The translations under genes and the position numbers were made by a program. From a virus, in IMG/VR virus record IMGVR_UViG_3300037541_000696, positions 1 through 64,000 of that record: DNA of 64,000 nt, one strand, 5' to 3'. Shown here one piece after another: positions 6,143-29,629 of this stretch; within the stretch, counting starts at the first letter, position 1; every line of letters starts with the position of its first letter. The notes under the pieces were generated by a model. It made no database searches, had not been told where the DNA came from, and saw nothing but the letters and a program-made list of their open reading frames with translations.

Positions 6143-6206
6143 TTGTTTCGTGTCTCAAGGCGCACGAACTTGTGCGCTTTGAGATTTTTTACTTTTTAGA
6201 GGTTTT

Positions 6207-6419
6207 ATGTTTGATTCTGCATTCTTACCTGTTGGCTATGGCTATGGCAATGGCTACGGCACCGGCAATGGCGATGGCAATGGCAATGGCGATGGCAATG
6301 GCTACGGCTATGGCTATGGCAATGGCTACGGCACCGGCAATGGCACCGGCAATGGCGATGGCTTCGGCATCGGCGATGGCTGCGGCTATGGCACCCCTTC
6401 AATTAGGAGCAGAAAATGA
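6207..6419 (+). CDS. Glycine-rich (GxGx) peptide 1
   Basis: GAGG RBS upstream; FLPVGYG...CGYGTPSIRSRK. Confidence 0.75.
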   Translation: MFDSAFLPVGYGYGNGYGTGNGDGNGNGDGNGYGYGYGNGYGTGNGTGNGDGFGIGDGCGYGTPSIRSRK

Positions 6420-6667
6420 TGACTAATTCTACATTCTTACCTGTTGGCTATGGCGATGGCGCCGGCGATGGCAATGGCGATGGCTACGGCTACGACTGCG
6501 GCTATGGCTATGGCGATGGCACCGGCTATGGCAATGGCACCGGCTACGGCACCGGCTACGGCACCGGCTATGGCGATGGCAATGGCCATGGCGCCGGCGA
6601 TGGCGATGGCGATGGCCACGGCTACGACTGCGGCTATGGCACCCCCTCGATTCGGCCTAGAAAATGA
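6416..6667 (+). CDS. Glycine-rich (GxGx) peptide 2, tandem paralog
   Basis: FLPVGYG...CGYGTPSIRPRK; ATGA overlap with both neighbours. Confidence 0.75.
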   Translation: MMTNSTFLPVGYGDGAGDGNGDGYGYDCGYGYGDGTGYGNGTGYGTGYGTGYGDGNGHGAGDGDGDGHGYDCGYGTPSIRPRK

Positions 6668-6900
6668 CGGTCAAGGAGCTTGTCGGGTGGCTGACAGCGT
6701 TTGAAGATCAAGACGCAGAAGTCAAGGTGATTAAACACGTATGTGGCTCAAGCTACTACGATCAAGGCGGCACAGTAGAAGTTGTGTCACTGGAGCCTGA
6801 TGTTATGAACTATACTGATCTCCGAAGCAATCCATTTATCAAGGAAGATTGTTTGTGCCACGAATCACATACACTGCTACTAGGCGAGCTAAACGCCTAA
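6664..6900 (+). CDS. Hypothetical protein (MTVKEL-type small phage protein)
   Basis: Translationally coupled ORF. Confidence 0.65.
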   Translation: MTVKELVGWLTAFEDQDAEVKVIKHVCGSSYYDQGGTVEVVSLEPDVMNYTDLRSNPFIKEDCLCHESHTLLLGELNA

Positions 6901-13220: not shown

Positions 13221-14306
13221 CTACTGCTGCCTAATCTGAACTGGCATAATCAAAAATAGATCATCACTTTCTCCGTCTGTTAAAACTGCAGGAGTGGTCT
13301 CCGTATTCATGCTTAATATAATTTTTTCACTATTCAATCCCTTAAGCGCGTCGGTCAGGTATCGCGCATTAAAGGCGATCACTATATCGTCTCCGCCAAA
13401 TTCAACCGGCAAGGACTCTGATGCCTTGCTGCCTTCGGCATCGGCGTTGATCCTGAGCAGCTGATCACTGCTGCTAAAAGATAGTCTAACCATGTTATTT
13501 GTGATAGCAGCAACAGTAGATACTCTACTGACTGCCGCAATTAACGATTTGCGATCAATTGTCGCAGTCCTTTTAAAATTTGGCGGAATTAACTGTTCGT
13601 AGTCTGGAAATGTTGACGCAAATGTGCTTGTTACGATTTGAATGTTTCCGGTCTCAATAAGTAACTGAGTCTTGGCTTGAGTCAACGCAATATCTTCTGC
13701 AGATAGTTTGATGGCTTCAGCCAGGGATGCGGCTGGAATAGTTAAGTCAATATCATGCCCTGCCGCATCGAATGCTGCCACACCTAGCCTATGGCCATCT
13801 GTTGCGGCGCACTTAATTGTGTTGCCTTTTCCTCTGATATTGACACCCATTAGTTGCTGCTTAGCTTCGTCAAGTGAAGCGCAAGTGCTGACGGCTTTCG
13901 CAGCGCGTGCAAAACTTGATGGTAGCACTGTGCTAGTGCCACTAATTGTAGGAAAATCAGGAAAATCTTCTGGATTTGCTGTGCTCAACTCATAACTTCC
14001 TGATGTAGATGTGATAATCATCGTTTCACCGACGACATTTAGTGATAATGGACCATCGGAGGGTAGCTTGGACGTTATCTCAGTGAGGATTCGATAGGGT
14101 GTTGCGGTGATTCCTGTTGTCGCAACTGAAGCAGGAATTGTCACTCTAATTCCAAGTGACAAATCATACCCCGTGACGCGAACTGAGTTATCAAACGCCT
14201 CCACAAGGACGTTAATCATGATCGGGTGAGCCGGGCGATTTGGCACGGCTTTGGCGATGGAATGCAACGCCTGAGCGAACTCAGACTGAGAGAGAACGAC
14301 TTCCAT
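13221..14306 (-). CDS. dnaN: DNA polymerase III beta sliding clamp
   Basis: ATDGHRL, FPDYEQLIP, IAFNARYL, LIMPVQIR motifs. Confidence 0.95.
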   Translation of the reverse strand: MEVVLSQSEFAQALHSIAKAVPNRPAHPIMINVLVEAFDNSVRVTGYDLSLGIRVTIPASVATTGITATPYRILTEITSKLPSDGPLSLNVVGETMIITSTSGSYELSTANPEDFPDFPTISGTSTVLPSSFARAAKAVSTCASLDEAKQQLMGVNIRGKGNTIKCAATDGHRLGVAAFDAAGHDIDLTIPAASLAEAIKLSAEDIALTQAKTQLLIETGNIQIVTSTFASTFPDYEQLIPPNFKRTATIDRKSLIAAVSRVSTVAAITNNMVRLSFSSSDQLLRINADAEGSKASESLPVEFGGDDIVIAFNARYLTDALKGLNSEKIILSMNTETTPAVLTDGESDDLFLIMPVQIRQQ

Positions 14307-14324: not shown

Positions 14325-14489
14325 CTAGAGGTGATCAATATCAAGAAAAATCTTGATATTGTCTTGATTGGCATGGATCACCCATGCCGAAACAGGAACA
14401 ACAACCAACAGAAAACCTAGCAAGACTTGCCAGTGAATTAGTGGTTGCTTTTGGCGTAATCGCCTTAAGCGGCGTGACTTAAATGTCAT
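14325..14489 (-). CDS. Small membrane protein (54 aa, not in ORF track)
   Basis: MTFKSRRLRRLRQK...VLLGFLLVVVPVSAWV; ATGA overlap with upstream gene. Confidence 0.5.
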   Translation of the reverse strand: MTFKSRRLRRLRQKQPLIHWQVLLGFLLVVVPVSAWVIHANQDNIKIFLDIDHL

Positions 14490-17117: not shown

Positions 17118-20100
17118 GTGGCAGATCTTCAGGTAACGCTTGCCTTTTTGCTTGAAAACCAAGCAGAAGTTGCGCGTGAACTTGAAAGGACTGGTGGGAT
17201 CGCTGGGGCGGATTTTGGGAAGGGGCTGTCAGCAGGAGCAAAAAAATCTTTAGATGATTTAATTGATCAAGCCACAAAAGCGGCCAAGCAGGTTGGACTT
17301 GTTTTTAATAAGCAAAAATTTCAATTTGAAACTATTCGCGGTGAGATTGTTCCGCCTGAAGCGCTTAAAAATCTTGCTCAGGTAAGCAAAGAATTTAAGA
17401 CGGCACAAAATGCTGTACAAGCTTTTAAGGCAGCATTGTCACAAGCATCTAGGCAATCTGTTCAAGACTTTAGCCTTATTGAGGCCGCAATAACAGGCGT
17501 TGCCATATCACTCAGCAATCGACTAACCGACGCATCTCTGTCGGCACTAGGTTCAATTCGCGGTCTTATCGGAGGTTTTATAGAGCTAGATAGCGAGCTG
17601 CGCCTAGCATCTGCGGCCGCAGGCGAACAAGGTGGTTATCAACGATTATCAACGGTTGTAAGCAAGGTCGGCATCGAAGCAGCAGGCACCACAAAAGAAG
17701 TCGCACAGCTTACTACATCACTTGTGCAGGCTGGATTTAGTGTCAAAGAAGTTGAAGCAGCGCTGCCCGGAATTGTTCGCGGCGCTGAGGCAACTGGAAC
17801 AGGATTCCAAGAATTTGGAAGGATTATTGCTGATACTTTAAGATCATTTGGGCTAGAAGCTTCTGAAACAGGGCGTGTTGTTGATGTGATGGCAAAAACT
17901 GTGAATAGCAGTAGTGCCCAAATGGAAGACTTAAGTTATACACTTAAGTCTTCTGCCTTAACTGCTAAGGCTGTTGGCATCTCCATGGAAGAGTTGGCCG
18001 CTGCGACTGGCTTGCTGGCTAATGTAGGTATTCGCAGTAGTGTTGCTGGTACAGGGTTGCGCACAATGATTGAGCGACTGGGAAGGGCATCCGGTGGCGC
18101 ATCTCAAGATGTTTTAGATCTGGCATGGGGGCAAGAGCGCCTTGCCAAGGCCATGGTAAAGGTTGGCGCCAGTGTAATTGATGCAAACGGAAATATGCTG
18201 CCTTTAGAGGATCAGTTAATTAAGCTCAAAGATGGGTTTAATGATTTTAGTCAAGCAGACCAAATTCAGCTTTCTAATATCTTATTTGGCGATGAAGCCG
18301 GTAATAAATTTCTGTCAATTATCAATCAAAGCACATCATCTATTCGAGATATGTTTGCTGAGATTAGAGACAGCAAAGGATCAACGGATGAGGCACGAAA
18401 AGAAATGGCTGGCTTCGGGCTTGAATTAAAGCAACTTGAAGGAACTCTTGGTAGTATTGGAAATGATATTGGCCAGGTTGTTGTTGCTGTATTGCGTCCA
18501 TTGCTGGGCATCGCAAATCAACTTGCCGGCACTGTATCGGGATTGCCGACACCAATTAAAGCTACTGCTATTGTGCTAACCGCACTTGGCGCCGCTGGAT
18601 TAGCAGCAAGTATAGGCATTGCGGCAATAGGACTTGCCGTAAAAAATATAGGTGGTTTTTCTGTATTGCGCGATCAGATTGCATTAGTAACTAGCACAAT
18701 TACTGGCCCATTTGCTGCGTCAACTGTTGTTTTTCTTGGTGTTGCCGCTGCTGTTGGGTTGATGACAGGTCAGTTTAGAAATATGGATGCTGTAACAAAA
18801 CAAGTTGTCATAACAATGATTTCATTAAGTGCAGCCATTGGCACTGCAATGGTACTTGCAAATGCACAAGTAATTGCCTCTTCGATTGCTGGATGGTCTG
18901 CTGTATTACTGCCAGTAGTTACATCATATAGGTCGTTGATTGCATTAACAAAAGGATTAACAATATCTCAAATTGCGTTAAATGTTGTCCAGGCTCCATT
19001 GGCTGGAATTGCGGCTGTAATCGCTGGTATTACAAATGCCTATGCTGCACTAAGAAGAGGCATAGGACTTGTGGCGGCAGCAACCGCTTTTTTGCAGTCG
19101 CTAACATCTCCAGGAATGGGCGCCGCCAAGGTTGCCGCCGCTGCAATAGTTGGTGTTGCGGCCTATGGTGCGCTTAATCTTATGATTAAAGAGGCATCTA
19201 AGGAGACGTCTCAACTATCAGAAGAGCAGCGAGCTTTGCAAAGCGAAATAGAAGAAACACGTAAGCTAATTAGTGAGCAAAGAGAAATGGGATTAAATAC
19301 AGGATATGCGCAAAAAAGACTTGCTCAACTTGAGGTGAAAAAATCAGCTATTGCAGAACCGCTTGAATTTAATCTTGACATCGACCAAGCAGAAAAGAAG
19401 ATTGAATTACTCAAAAAGAAACTAGAAGAATCAAAAGATGACACAACAAAAATAGCATCTGAAGCGCAAATTGAAGCGACTAGCCAATGGAAGCGATTTT
19501 TAGAGATATTGAAAAATAACGAAGATTTGAGCAAGCTTCCTGCGCCATTAAGAGAATATGCCGAAAAACTTAAGAAAGCAAACGATGATATACAAAAATT
19601 ACAAGAAAAAAGGCTAACTATTCCGATTGATGCGACTGCAGACAATGCGGAGATAAATAGGCGCGTAAGTGAACTTCAAGAATACATTAACGATTTGACT
19701 GTTAATGTACGCATTTCAATTGAAAAATCAACAATACAAGATCAATTAAAGCGCGTTCAGCAAGAATTAAACAAAATGCCAAGCGGTGAAAACAAGGAAA
19801 AAACAAAGCTTGAAAAAGAGCGTGACCGTTTAAATGTAATGCTTAGCAAAAACAAGAATGAAGAAATTGATCGCGGCCAAAAAACAGTAGCTGTTGCAAA
19901 AGAAATAACAGCAACAAATGAAGCAAGAATTGCTTTAATTAAAACACAACAGGCAGAAGAAGAATCTTTATTGGCGCAACAGCAGATCACTGGAAAGATC
20001 ACTGAGTCGCAGCTAAGTAGAGAAACGTCAATGATTAGACTAAAAGCGATTGAATTAGAAAAAGAAATTAAACTTAAGCAGCTTAGTGCGTCAATTCAAG

Positions 20101-27036: not shown

Positions 27037-27046
27037 CGGGAAAACT
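27037..27046 (+). promoter_or_regulatory. Late promoter box CGGGAAAACT
   Basis: 55 nt before scaffold ATG; leader carries a hairpin. Confidence 0.75.
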
Positions 27047-27057
27047 TAACCTGCAAC

Positions 27058-27088
27058 TTATGCCGGCTGAGCGATTCACCGGTCATAA
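27058..27088 (+). promoter_or_regulatory. GCGAU-loop leader hairpin (scaffold)
   Basis: TTATG-CCGG-c-TGA[GCGAT]TCA-CCGG-t-CATAA, ends 3 nt before ATG. Confidence 0.7.
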
Positions 27089-27091
27089 TCC

Positions 27092-27916
27092 ATGAAAAAA
27101 ATCTGGCTCAACAAGCTCCCCTTTGCCAGTGATTTCCCAATCCCCACCGTTGATGATGCGCCTGAAGGTGATCAAGTCGGAGGGGGTTCCGCTGATGACT
27201 CTATCGGCGAATTAGACCATTCTGATGATGATAGCGAGCCCCTTGGAGAAGAGGGCAGGAAAGCGCTGACAAGAGAACGGCAGGCTCGAAAAGAGCGTGA
27301 GCGCGAATTGTCACAATTGAGGGAGCAGCTCAAGGCTGTTGCTGAAATCAACCCGGATTTGTATAAAAAAACACTTGAGCGAGCGGAAGAACTTAAGCGC
27401 ACGCTTGAGGAAAAGGAGCGTGAGACCACTGAGGCGACAAGGCGCATTCGCGAAAAAGCTGACTCCGAGGTTCGAGCGGCAAGGCAGGCCGCTGATGCCG
27501 CTGAGCGGGCGCGAATTGATCTGCTGACCAAGACTGCAGGGCAGCAGATTTTTAGGTTGAATAAGGGGCTGGATGAAGTTGATGAAGTGCTCGGTCAAAC
27601 ATCATTCGATGCGTGGTGGAGACTTCATGGAAGCCAACACCTTAAATGGGACAACAAATTGAATAACGTTGTTGTTGTTGACAAGGATGGGGATCCGATC
27701 ACTGAAGATGGCAAGCCGGTTGATCCTGTCAAGTGGCTAGACGAAGTTGCCGATAAGTCACCAATGGTGGCTCAATACTTCAGATCAAAATCTGGTGAGG
27801 GATCTGGTGGTCTTCAGGGTGCACGAAATGTGCGCACTGTGACAAGTAGAAACAAACAAGATCTAGCAAAACTTAGTCCCGACAAGCTGCTTGAGGAGCA
27901 TTACAGCAACAAATAA
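27092..27916 (+). CDS. Capsid scaffolding protein
   Basis: Acidic N-terminus, LGEEGRKALTRERQARK coiled coil, GSGG C-terminus; precedes capsid gene. Confidence 0.85.
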   Translation: MKKIWLNKLPFASDFPIPTVDDAPEGDQVGGGSADDSIGELDHSDDDSEPLGEEGRKALTRERQARKERERELSQLREQLKAVAEINPDLYKKTLERAEELKRTLEEKERETTEATRRIREKADSEVRAARQAADAAERARIDLLTKTAGQQIFRLNKGLDEVDEVLGQTSFDAWWRLHGSQHLKWDNKLNNVVVVDKDGDPITEDGKPVDPVKWLDEVADKSPMVAQYFRSKSGEGSGGLQGARNVRTVTSRNKQDLAKLSPDKLLEEHYSNK

Positions 27917-27927
27917 GAATTGTTGAC

Positions 27928-27937
27928 CGGGAAAACT
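27928..27937 (+). promoter_or_regulatory. Late promoter box CGGGAAAACT
   Basis: 149 nt before capsid ATG; leader carries three hairpins. Confidence 0.75.
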
Positions 27938-28051
27938 GCGGATAGGTGAGGCGCGATGCCAAATCTATCCGCTTTTTGATGCGACATCAAAAAGCTTTTT
28001 GCGATTGCTGTATTCAATGGCGCGATGCCAATGAAAGCGCAACTTTCAAAA
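27938..28051 (+). promoter_or_regulatory. Three GCGAY-loop hairpins in major capsid leader (cis-regulatory RNA)
   Basis: Loops at 27953, 27981 and 28022 on stems with different sequences. Confidence 0.75.
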
Positions 28052-28076: not shown

Positions 28077-29033
28077 ATGTCTTCCACTACACTTTGGTCT
28101 CATTTTGAGGCTCGCGCCGAACTTGGCGCTCCTGCCCTAGAGCTTGCTGCCCTTCAAATCCTGCGAAATGGTCCCCTAGCTGGCCTTATTCCGTGGGTAG
28201 ATATTGTAGGAATGACCTACAACTTCGCCCTTCAAGATGAGCTGCCCAAGGTTAAAGCTCGTCTATTTGATGAGGCAAGCGAGCGCGGACAGGGCACCAC
28301 CATGAAAGGTGCGCAAAATGTGCACATTTACAGCTATGATGTTCGCACTGATTCATCAAAGCTGGCGCTGCTTGGTCAGGGTACGCACAATCGGCAGGTA
28401 AAAGCCGCCATTCAATCGTTGCGGTTGGCAATCGAAAACGACTTCCTGAATGGGAACGATGCGCTTAGCGGCGGCCGCGAAATGGATGGAGTTCGCAAAC
28501 AAATCCCCGTGTCGCAACAGGTGGTCAATGCCAGCGGCGGCGCCGGGCTTAAATTGTCAAAACTCGATGAATTGATCGCCGAGGTAGATGGCCCCAACGA
28601 AGAGAAGGTACTCGTTCTTCCCAAAAAGCTGAAGACCAAATTTGGCGCGGCGGTGCGCAACATTGGGGTGTCCGGTCTTTACATTCAAGGGATTGACCAG
28701 CTTGGTCGATCCGCTCAGATGTACGACGGCGTTCCCCTGATTGAGACTGATGTTCGGGATGACAACACCCCGATTCAACCCTTCACTGAATCAAACAGTA
28801 CAACGACTATCTACTGTATGCGGCTCGGCGAAGGATTTACCAGTGGGATCCAATCTCCCGCATATAACGAAGCCGGTGAATTGACTCAAGGGCTTGTAAT
28901 TTACGACCTTAATGAGTCATTTACCACGGCAACACGCGCTACGCGATTCACTTGGCACTGCGGCGCTGTTGTAGAGGATCCGAACTCAATCGCTTCCCTC
29001 TCTGGCATCACACTTGCGGACATCACCGCTTGA
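28077..29033 (+). CDS. Major capsid protein (HK97 fold)
   Basis: 318 aa; FLNGN..EMDGV, LDELIAEV, YDGVPLIETD, IYCMRLG, SIASLSGIT. Confidence 0.9.
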   Translation: MSSTTLWSHFEARAELGAPALELAALQILRNGPLAGLIPWVDIVGMTYNFALQDELPKVKARLFDEASERGQGTTMKGAQNVHIYSYDVRTDSSKLALLGQGTHNRQVKAAIQSLRLAIENDFLNGNDALSGGREMDGVRKQIPVSQQVVNASGGAGLKLSKLDELIAEVDGPNEEKVLVLPKKLKTKFGAAVRNIGVSGLYIQGIDQLGRSAQMYDGVPLIETDVRDDNTPIQPFTESNSTTTIYCMRLGEGFTSGIQSPAYNEAGELTQGLVIYDLNESFTTATRATRFTWHCGAVVEDPNSIASLSGITLADITA

Positions 29034-29071: not shown

Positions 29072-29566
29072 ATGTCTCGCCCTACAGGTATCTTTCTCCA
29101 ACGTCCCTATCTCCGCAGCCGCGAAAATGTTCTTTTTGGAGCCGTTCGTGATGGCGAAGGTGTAGCAGCCGAAACGCGCACTGGCGCTGCACGGCTGCTG
29201 CCGGATAAGCTCAATGGCCAATCCAATGCGCTGATTGTTGCTGTCGGAGCACTGTCTAATGCGTCCGGTGGCTACTGGATTGAAGTTGCGCATGTGCCGA
29301 TCGGTGGCACAATTTCTGATGCTAACCCTTCGGGATATGTCCGCATCGGCAGCATCTCTTTTGATGGGATGAATCCTACCGAAGCGATCTTCTCCAAGGT
29401 TCAACTGGAAAGTTTGATTAAGGCCAATGCCTCGCCAGCCCTGACAGTTGATCCGCGTGTTGTCGCCATCCGCCTTGTGGCTGGCACAGGCACGGGCAGC
29501 GGCCAAAATGGCCTTGCCGTTCCCACAAACGCCACTGGAGCTGTGATTCATTATCAGCCCACCTGA
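29072..29566 (+). CDS. Capsid decoration/minor capsid protein
   Basis: GAGG RBS; follows capsid gene; terminator downstream. Confidence 0.6.
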   Translation: MSRPTGIFLQRPYLRSRENVLFGAVRDGEGVAAETRTGAARLLPDKLNGQSNALIVAVGALSNASGGYWIEVAHVPIGGTISDANPSGYVRIGSISFDGMNPTEAIFSKVQLESLIKANASPALTVDPRVVAIRLVAGTGTGSGQNGLAVPTNATGAVIHYQPT

Positions 29567-29590: not shown

Positions 29591-29613
29591 GGGAGGGTCA
29601 ATCCTCCCTTTTT
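29591..29613 (+). terminator. Intrinsic terminator of capsid operon
   Basis: GGGAGG-gtcaat-CCTCCC-TTTTT. Confidence 0.75.
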
Positions 29614-29629
29614 CTTTACCATAAAAATC

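Follow-up and report, generated by a model that had tools for sequence, protein, structure and literature searches.

Hairpins with a conserved G-N-G-A-Y loop mark the scaffold and capsid gene leaders of P-SS2-like cyanophages

Little is known of the way in which tailed phages balance the amounts of scaffold and capsid protein. In this study, we focused on a viral record (IMG/VR IMGVR_UViG_3300037541_000696) in which the leaders of these two genes raise the question anew. The stretch analysed comprises positions 1 to 64,000 of the record, 64,000 nucleotides in all, and is called the window here. The virion genes of the window are preceded by nine exact and several near copies of the box CGGGAAAACT. 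At ten other late genes with such a box, the leader is 20-26 nt long, unstructured and devoid of a Shine-Dalgarno sequence. The distance from box to ATG is 55 nt at the scaffold gene and 149 nt at the capsid gene; both values, given in an initial annotation of this DNA, were right when the coordinates were read again. What do these two leaders contain, and what might their content do for the synthesis of the head proteins?

The features of the locus are collected in Table 1. It is plausible that the box serves as a late promoter element for a phage-encoded sigma factor, because the end of the record, beyond the window, has an ORF with sigma-70 region 2 (Sigma70_r2; 3'-open; G000 78088-78498; L374:14088-14498) immediately behind TerL (76440-78059). 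The product of this ORF is the likely reader of the box. The 164-aa ORF that follows the capsid gene is 54-58% identical in most lineages of the clade and 38-44% in two, compared with 36-49% for the capsid itself. Its model is beta-rich with low confidence (pLDDT 60), and a fold search of the PDB gave no match. In two metatranscriptome runs, the capsid matches were short contigs of the capsid coding sequence only. Two other places in the window were recorded along the way. The portal ORF (DUF4055; 4-1476) is cut by the start of the record, and its frame is about 25 aa longer in the relatives L375-L379. At 6172-6704, two adjoining ORFs consist largely of Ala-Met repeats (MAMAMA...).

Table 1. 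Features of the scaffold and capsid transcription region (window coordinates).
Feature	Coordinates	Strand	Remarks
Late box CGGGAAAACT, scaffold gene	27037-27046	+	Presumed late promoter element; CGGGAAAAC at 27037-27045
H1	27063-27082	+	Scaffold leader; CCGG, bulged C (27067), TGA[GCGAT]TCA (27068-27078), CCGG
Head scaffolding protein gene	27092-27916	+	274 aa; phrog_206, E = 5.9e-11
Late box CGGGAAAACT, capsid gene	27928-27937 (27928-27936)	+	Invariant in relatives
H2	27938-27972	+	Begins directly after late box; 10-bp outer stem, 2x2 internal loop, tip GGC[GCGAT]GCC
H3	27971-28000	+	GCTTTTTGAT[GCGAC]ATCAAAAAGC (27971-27995), then T5 to 28000
H4	28013-28035	+	TTCAATGGC[GCGAT]GCCAATGAA; core TGGC[GCGAT]GCCA at 28018-28030; tip of a longer imperfect stem
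Major capsid protein gene	28077-29033	+	318 aa; phrog_212, E = 6e-29; homologues are PF17236
Conserved ORF	29072-29566	+	164 aa; predicted beta-rich; between capsid gene and terminator-like site, no late box between
Intrinsic-terminator-like site	29591-29617	+	Closes the capsid transcription unit

The initial annotation had placed four hairpins with a GCGAY loop in the two leaders, and direct reading of the sequence located all four where it had put them. The description of H1 had to be corrected. This hairpin has 4 bp, a 1-nt bulge and 3 bp and is thus longer than was described; its extended stem ends 9 nt, and not 3 nt, before the ATG at 27092. H2 and H3 overlap by 2 nt. The minimum-energy fold of the capsid leader in ViennaRNA is exactly H2, H3 and H4 (z = -3.9; 0 of 200 shuffles as stable), and H1 was also recovered with this program. 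Hairpins of this type are not special as such, since their numbers are at chance level. The genome has 18 hairpins with a 3-bp stem and a GCGAN loop on the + strand against about 17 expected, an estimate from 330 GCGAN sites with each flanking position pairing at a probability of 6/16. GNGAY hairpins of at least 4 bp number 22, against 22.3 in shuffles. For four hairpins within about 205 nt of two leaders the Poisson expectation would be about 0.05, a post hoc figure. Decisive support for the cluster being real comes from conservation, as judged by sequence comparison. Apart from the cluster, a perfect 7-bp hairpin, GGCATGG[GTGAT]CCATGCC, is found on the - strand at 14363-14381, about 60 nt upstream of a minus-strand ORF of 361 aa (13221-14306). 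An upstream ORF of 11 codons (27060-27095) runs through H1 and ends with a TGA that overlaps the ATG of the scaffold gene (ATGA); since L001 and L004 do not keep this ORF, it is probably incidental.

A search of IMG/VR with the capsid protein yielded six close contigs (88-92% identity) and deeper ones at 45%; the homologues P0003 and P0004 are at 57-58% identity. Many further relatives were collected by a pattern scan for the late box followed by the hairpin core, and a scan of metagenome contigs added only close relatives. About 45 loci encode capsid homologues, 30-92% identical, and yield some 35-37 distinct capsid leaders and 23 canonical scaffold leaders. With a looser pattern of two cores, the matches in viral contigs were mostly chance matches in GC-rich contigs. 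In genome contigs that pattern gave at least 120 matches; none of those listed was accompanied by a late box or by a homologue of capsid or scaffold, and copies in hosts or prophages are thus without support.

The relatives have a common layout, in which the late box is followed by one hairpin at the scaffold gene and by two or three at the capsid gene. Measured from the box, the loops of the capsid leader are centred at about +26-32, +54-68 and +94-127. In every lineage the gap between the box and the start of H2 is 0-4 nt, and most lineages keep the third hairpin, at the place of H4. The loops of 109 capsid-leader hairpins read GCGAU (98), GCGAA (6) or GCGAC (5), and the H1 loop is GCGAU in all 23 distinct scaffold leaders. 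Among the latter, the inner stem of H1 varies (GGA/UCC, GGC/GCC, UGA/UCA, UGG/CCA, CGG/CCG), the bulge keeps its position with C, U or A as its base, and the spacer between H1 and AUG is 6-9 nt throughout (6 nt in 20 of the 23). In L141 the H1 loop is replaced and the hairpin is still there. In the related loci, 575 kb in all, GCGAY hairpins accumulate in only two intervals relative to the capsid start, -200 to 0 (154 hairpins) and -1200 to -1000 (48), and they do so on the + (coding) strand only. The portal gene of five relatives (L375-L379) has a late box and a plain leader of 17 nt with no GNGAY hairpin. The hairpins are therefore confined to the scaffold and capsid leaders within this clade, as the initial annotation had held for the window. 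The stretch from the box through H3 is 95.7% identical to L001 and L004, compared with 77-80% for the capsid coding sequence and 67% for the scaffold coding sequence.

The pairing in these leaders has been preserved while the bases changed. In a MAFFT alignment of 21 distinct scaffold leaders (A4), all 147 cells of the H1 stem were paired, against 25-69% in slid controls, and five of the seven pairs had changed on both sides. A MAFFT alignment of 16 capsid leaders was 90% paired. A covariance model of this leader (R1) found 31 distinct capsid leaders at E <= 3e-7, and the window itself, from the box through H3 (27927-28004), scored 43.6 bits (E = 2.7e-8). When the 31 leaders were aligned by R1 (alignment A8, which is thus fitted to the model), 90% of the cells were paired and 16 of the 19 pairs had changed on both sides, including all 11 outer pairs of H2. 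In H3, A-to-G changes in relatives retain the pairing as G-U, and in H4 a G-C pair is replaced by A-U in L004/L005. The earlier claim that the stems differ while the loop is kept thus stands, both within the window genome and across about 35 related leaders, and the stems also covary. Scores on the reverse strand reached at most 22 bits, against 39-100 bits on the forward strand, and G-U pairs are frequent. Both observations indicate an RNA structure on the + strand and not a DNA palindrome. Covarying pairs across diverged homologues on one strand are what is generally looked for in a conserved structured RNA motif.

The hairpins are also present in phages that have been cultured. The capsid of P-SS2 is about 29-35% identical, its gene order is that of the window phage (tail genes, then scaffold and capsid), and an rpoS-type sigma gene stands beside terL in the same order as in the window phage record. 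In P-SS2 the hairpin GGGC[GUGAU]GCCC stands 9 nt ahead of the scaffold AUG, and the capsid leader contains GGC[GUGAU]GCC; the 11-mer GGCGTGATGCC occurs exactly twice in the 107.5 kb of this phage, in these two leaders only. A further hairpin, GCGGA[GUGAU]UCCGC (NC_013021, 107501-107515), lies 15 nt before the GTG of terS; the box CTCGGAAACCT precedes both this hairpin and that of the scaffold gene. A weaker one, GGC[GUGAU]GCU (17574-17584), is found about 70 nt before the MuF-like gp030. S-CRES3, S-CRES1 and S-CBS2 have hairpins with GAGAU, GAGAC, GUGAU or GCGAC loops at the same places of the scaffold and capsid leaders. The distance from hairpin to scaffold AUG is 9 nt in P-SS2, 7 nt in S-CRES3 and 8 nt in S-CRES1. 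The loop had been described as GCGAY; this is right for the clade of the window, but the GUGAU and GAGAY of the cultured relatives make G-N-G-A-Y the better description. P-SS2, S-CRES1, S-CRES3 and S-CBS2 do not have the CGGGAAAAC box. In these phages a canonical terminator and another promoter-like motif precede the capsid-leader hairpins, which therefore belong to the 5' leader independently of the promoter type. The leaders examined in Mwe-JY26 and CcrKarma contain no G-N-G-A-Y hairpin. In CcrKarma (L366, 1532-1798) the capsid leader has two copies of an 8-bp hairpin, CACGAAAC[CCUG]GUUUCGUG, which may be a different fixed-loop tag in phiCbK-like phages.

The surroundings of the hairpins show some further regularities. 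Short direct repeats flank the scaffold-leader hairpin (window 27054-27058 and relatives in A4; L361:810-846), as GCAAC..H1..GCAAC(GC)AUG in the clade of the window, as UGCGCAA..UGCGCAA-AUG in P-SS2 and as UGUAACA..UGUACAAC-AUG in S-CRES1. The 5' arm of H2 reads GGGUGAUCC in most high-GC relatives (L076, L153 and others), where the window has AGGUGA (27944-27949). The sequence GGGUGAUCC is complementary to GGAUCACC, which we take to be the 3' end of the 16S rRNA, and the 3' arm of H2 mimics that tail. Two pairings of the loop itself were considered and ruled out: that with the 16S 3' end (AUCAC against GUGAU) is broken by the variation at N and Y, and that with the start-codon region (AUCGUG) is not conserved.

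Among conserved RNA structures, a recognition element is marked by a fixed loop on a free stem, a positioned bulge, repetition in series and a spacing from the scaffold AUG that stays constant. All of these are present here and favour one shared reader. We consider it an evenly balanced proposition that the G-N-G-A-Y hairpins are strand-specific RNA docking sites for one such candidate reader, through which head-protein synthesis would be controlled. From the structure, strand, conservation and position of the hairpins we infer that a reader exists, what it may be and in which direction it would regulate. It would probably be a phage-encoded protein, with free scaffold or capsid protein as the simplest candidate, and a single reader would place the two most abundant head proteins under common post-transcriptional control. 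H1 lies inside the ribosome-binding region, as structures do in translational operators of the MS2 or thrS type. Because its place 6-9 nt upstream of the scaffold AUG is that of a normal Shine-Dalgarno duplex, a bound reader would block or gate the entry of the 30S subunit and so repress scaffold translation. H2-H4 could not act by simple occlusion since they are more than 40 nt from the capsid AUG. Its start next to the late box probably puts H2 at the very 5' end of the capsid mRNA. It may cap this end and, with H3 and H4, protect and stabilise the message, and the hairpins of the capsid leader would provide two or three further binding sites that tie capsid output to scaffold output.

Autoregulation by scaffold or capsid is our guess for the reader, and a parsimonious one since the tag stays with these genes even where the promoters differ between clades. 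In its fullest form, scaffold or capsid protein that is not yet assembled would occupy the loops on the mRNAs of both genes, and in P-SS2 also on that of terS, and head-protein synthesis would be matched to procapsid assembly. We hold this form to be unlikely. Sequence and fold searches (Pfam, PHROGs, PDB) among the neighbours of the head genes and the basic late proteins found nothing related to RNA. The replaced H1 loop of L141 also counts against a shared reader. The second loop position varies between clades (C, U or A), and even within S-CRES1 (GUGAU and GCGAC), which weakens the case for a strict sequence read-out.

The free second position and the searches that found no reader also fit hairpins that act alone, an explanation that is possible and leans towards the unlikely side. 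Here H2 would be a 5' stabiliser against RNase E/J, as in ompA and T7 gene 10, and H1 would act on scaffold translation as a constant damper or as a spacer. Intrinsic stability alone could account for the conserved GNGAY cap, as an unusually stable and nuclease-resistant GNRA-like loop, and this would count against a reader; freedom at the second position is usual in loops of the GNRA type. The constant place of H2 next to the box and the abundance of the two proteins whose genes are tagged fit a stabiliser well, and host RNase E activity is raised by cyanophage infection. Plain stabilisers and terminators, however, normally have varied loops, whereas the G, G, A and Y of these hairpins stay the same even where capsid identity is only 30%, and the fifth base is retained. 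Nor is stabilisation an obvious role for the same loop 6-9 nt before the scaffold AUG, for a bulge conserved in position in H1, or for two or three copies retained in series.

Control during transcription appears improbable. A factor modifying RNA polymerase would bind the hairpins as they are transcribed, as at nut sites with boxB, or the hairpins would themselves pause or terminate the polymerase as an attenuator and so set read-through into the capsid gene. The pentaloop may be GNRA-like as in boxB, H3 with its T5 scores as an intrinsic terminator in the window, the shared 2 nt of H2 and H3 would suit such a device, and a U-rich tract follows H2 in the window, in L141 and in the L178-type and L184-type leaders. 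The resemblance of H3 to a terminator, whose T5 the initial annotation had noted, nevertheless extends to the closest relatives of the window only: the run of U is shorter in L001, and neither L004/L005 nor the large high-GC groups have such tracts. H1 lies at the ribosome-binding region with no terminator after it, no boxA-like conserved sequence was seen in alignments A4, A6 and A8, and long-range antitermination is unnecessary because most late genes have their own box. That the cores are instead DNA sites of a late transcription factor (GGC-N5-GCC), or cruciform or single-stranded DNA hairpins, is hardly credible: they are imperfect palindromes beside late boxes, but their half-sites change freely with complementarity kept, many of their G-U pairs would appear as A-C mismatches in the opposite strand, R1 scores are strongly strand-specific, some copies are as far as 125 nt downstream of the box, and the same hairpins stand behind a different promoter type in the cultured relatives.

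We therefore return to RNA docking sites for a shared reader and to the place of the element among known RNAs. A comparison with Cyano-2 (RF01702), whose loops contain GCGA according to the initial annotation, had been proposed there, and neither this nor any other Rfam family gave a match. At the gathering threshold Rfam 15 reported two tRNAs only in the window; cmscan of the leader region at E up to 10 gave nothing relevant, nor did cmscan at E up to 1 of twelve loci, eight of them from relatives and four from as many cultured phages, and the leaders are accordingly not members of Cyano-2. A search for Cyano-2 in 152 cyanobacterial genomes had no matches anywhere, controls included, and is therefore uninformative. 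We found no paper that describes G-N-G-A-Y leader hairpins. A catalogue of about 10,000 candidate viral RNAs published in 2023 (PMC10690425) may hold the motif unnamed. On sequence grounds, the G-N-G-A-Y hairpins are one uncatalogued RNA motif of the head-gene leaders of P-SS2-like cyanosiphoviruses.

A compact RNA element supported by covariation thus marks exactly the scaffold and capsid messages in a large and mostly uncultured clade of freshwater and marine cyanophages. Its carriers in culture are P-SS2, S-CBS2, S-CRES1 and S-CRES3, and P-SS2 also marks the message of the small terminase. The element offers a starting point in the search for its reader, could enter RNA catalogues as a new family, and is a marker with which head-gene leaders may be annotated in metagenomic cyanophage contigs.

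Several known systems resemble this element in part. The boxB hairpins of the lambda and P22 nut sites are read by the arginine-rich motif of N. They have in common with the present hairpins a short stem with a pentaloop, which may be GNRA-like here too, a fixed loop on a free stem, a location just behind promoters in more than one copy per genome, and a loop sequence that differs between phage lineages. The G-N-G-A-Y loop could fold in the manner of GNRA with one more base on the 3' side, or as a triloop closed by G and Y; the extra base is at position 5 (GNGA+Y), whereas that of boxB is at position 3 or 4. Unlike boxB, which serves early operons, the element belongs to late head genes, has no boxA and no conserved terminators to overcome, and abuts a start codon in one of its copies; no N-like protein was recognised by the Pfam and PHROGs searches. 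The 5' stabilisers of E. coli ompA and T7 gene 10 offer another likeness, since H2 directly follows the presumed capsid promoter as the phi10 leader hairpin does in T7. Such stabilisers, however, need neither a fixed loop nor repeats, and the 5'-terminal place of H2 is presumptive.

The operators of MS2/R17 and PP7 are bound by the capsid protein, which represses the gene. Like H1, they are small hairpins with a fixed loop at the ribosome-binding region, and one base is bulged out of the 5' strand of the stem. The differences are that the present phages have dsDNA genomes, that the hairpin ends 6-9 nt before the AUG and does not contain it, that the bulged base is not fixed (C, U or A), and that multiple copies lie far from the capsid AUG. 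The P22 scaffolding gene is reportedly autoregulated at a post-transcriptional level (Wyckoff & Casjens 1985, J Virol 53:192, cited in PMC2115188), and we know of no RNA operator or target defined for it since 1985. There too scaffold is the regulated gene, and feedback by free scaffold would explain an operator at the scaffold start. Unlike in P22, it is the RNA element that is defined here and not the protein, and the element also tags the capsid gene and, in P-SS2, terS. If feedback coupled to assembly proves true, the G-N-G-A-Y hairpins would be the first defined RNA target of scaffold-type autoregulation in a tailed dsDNA phage.
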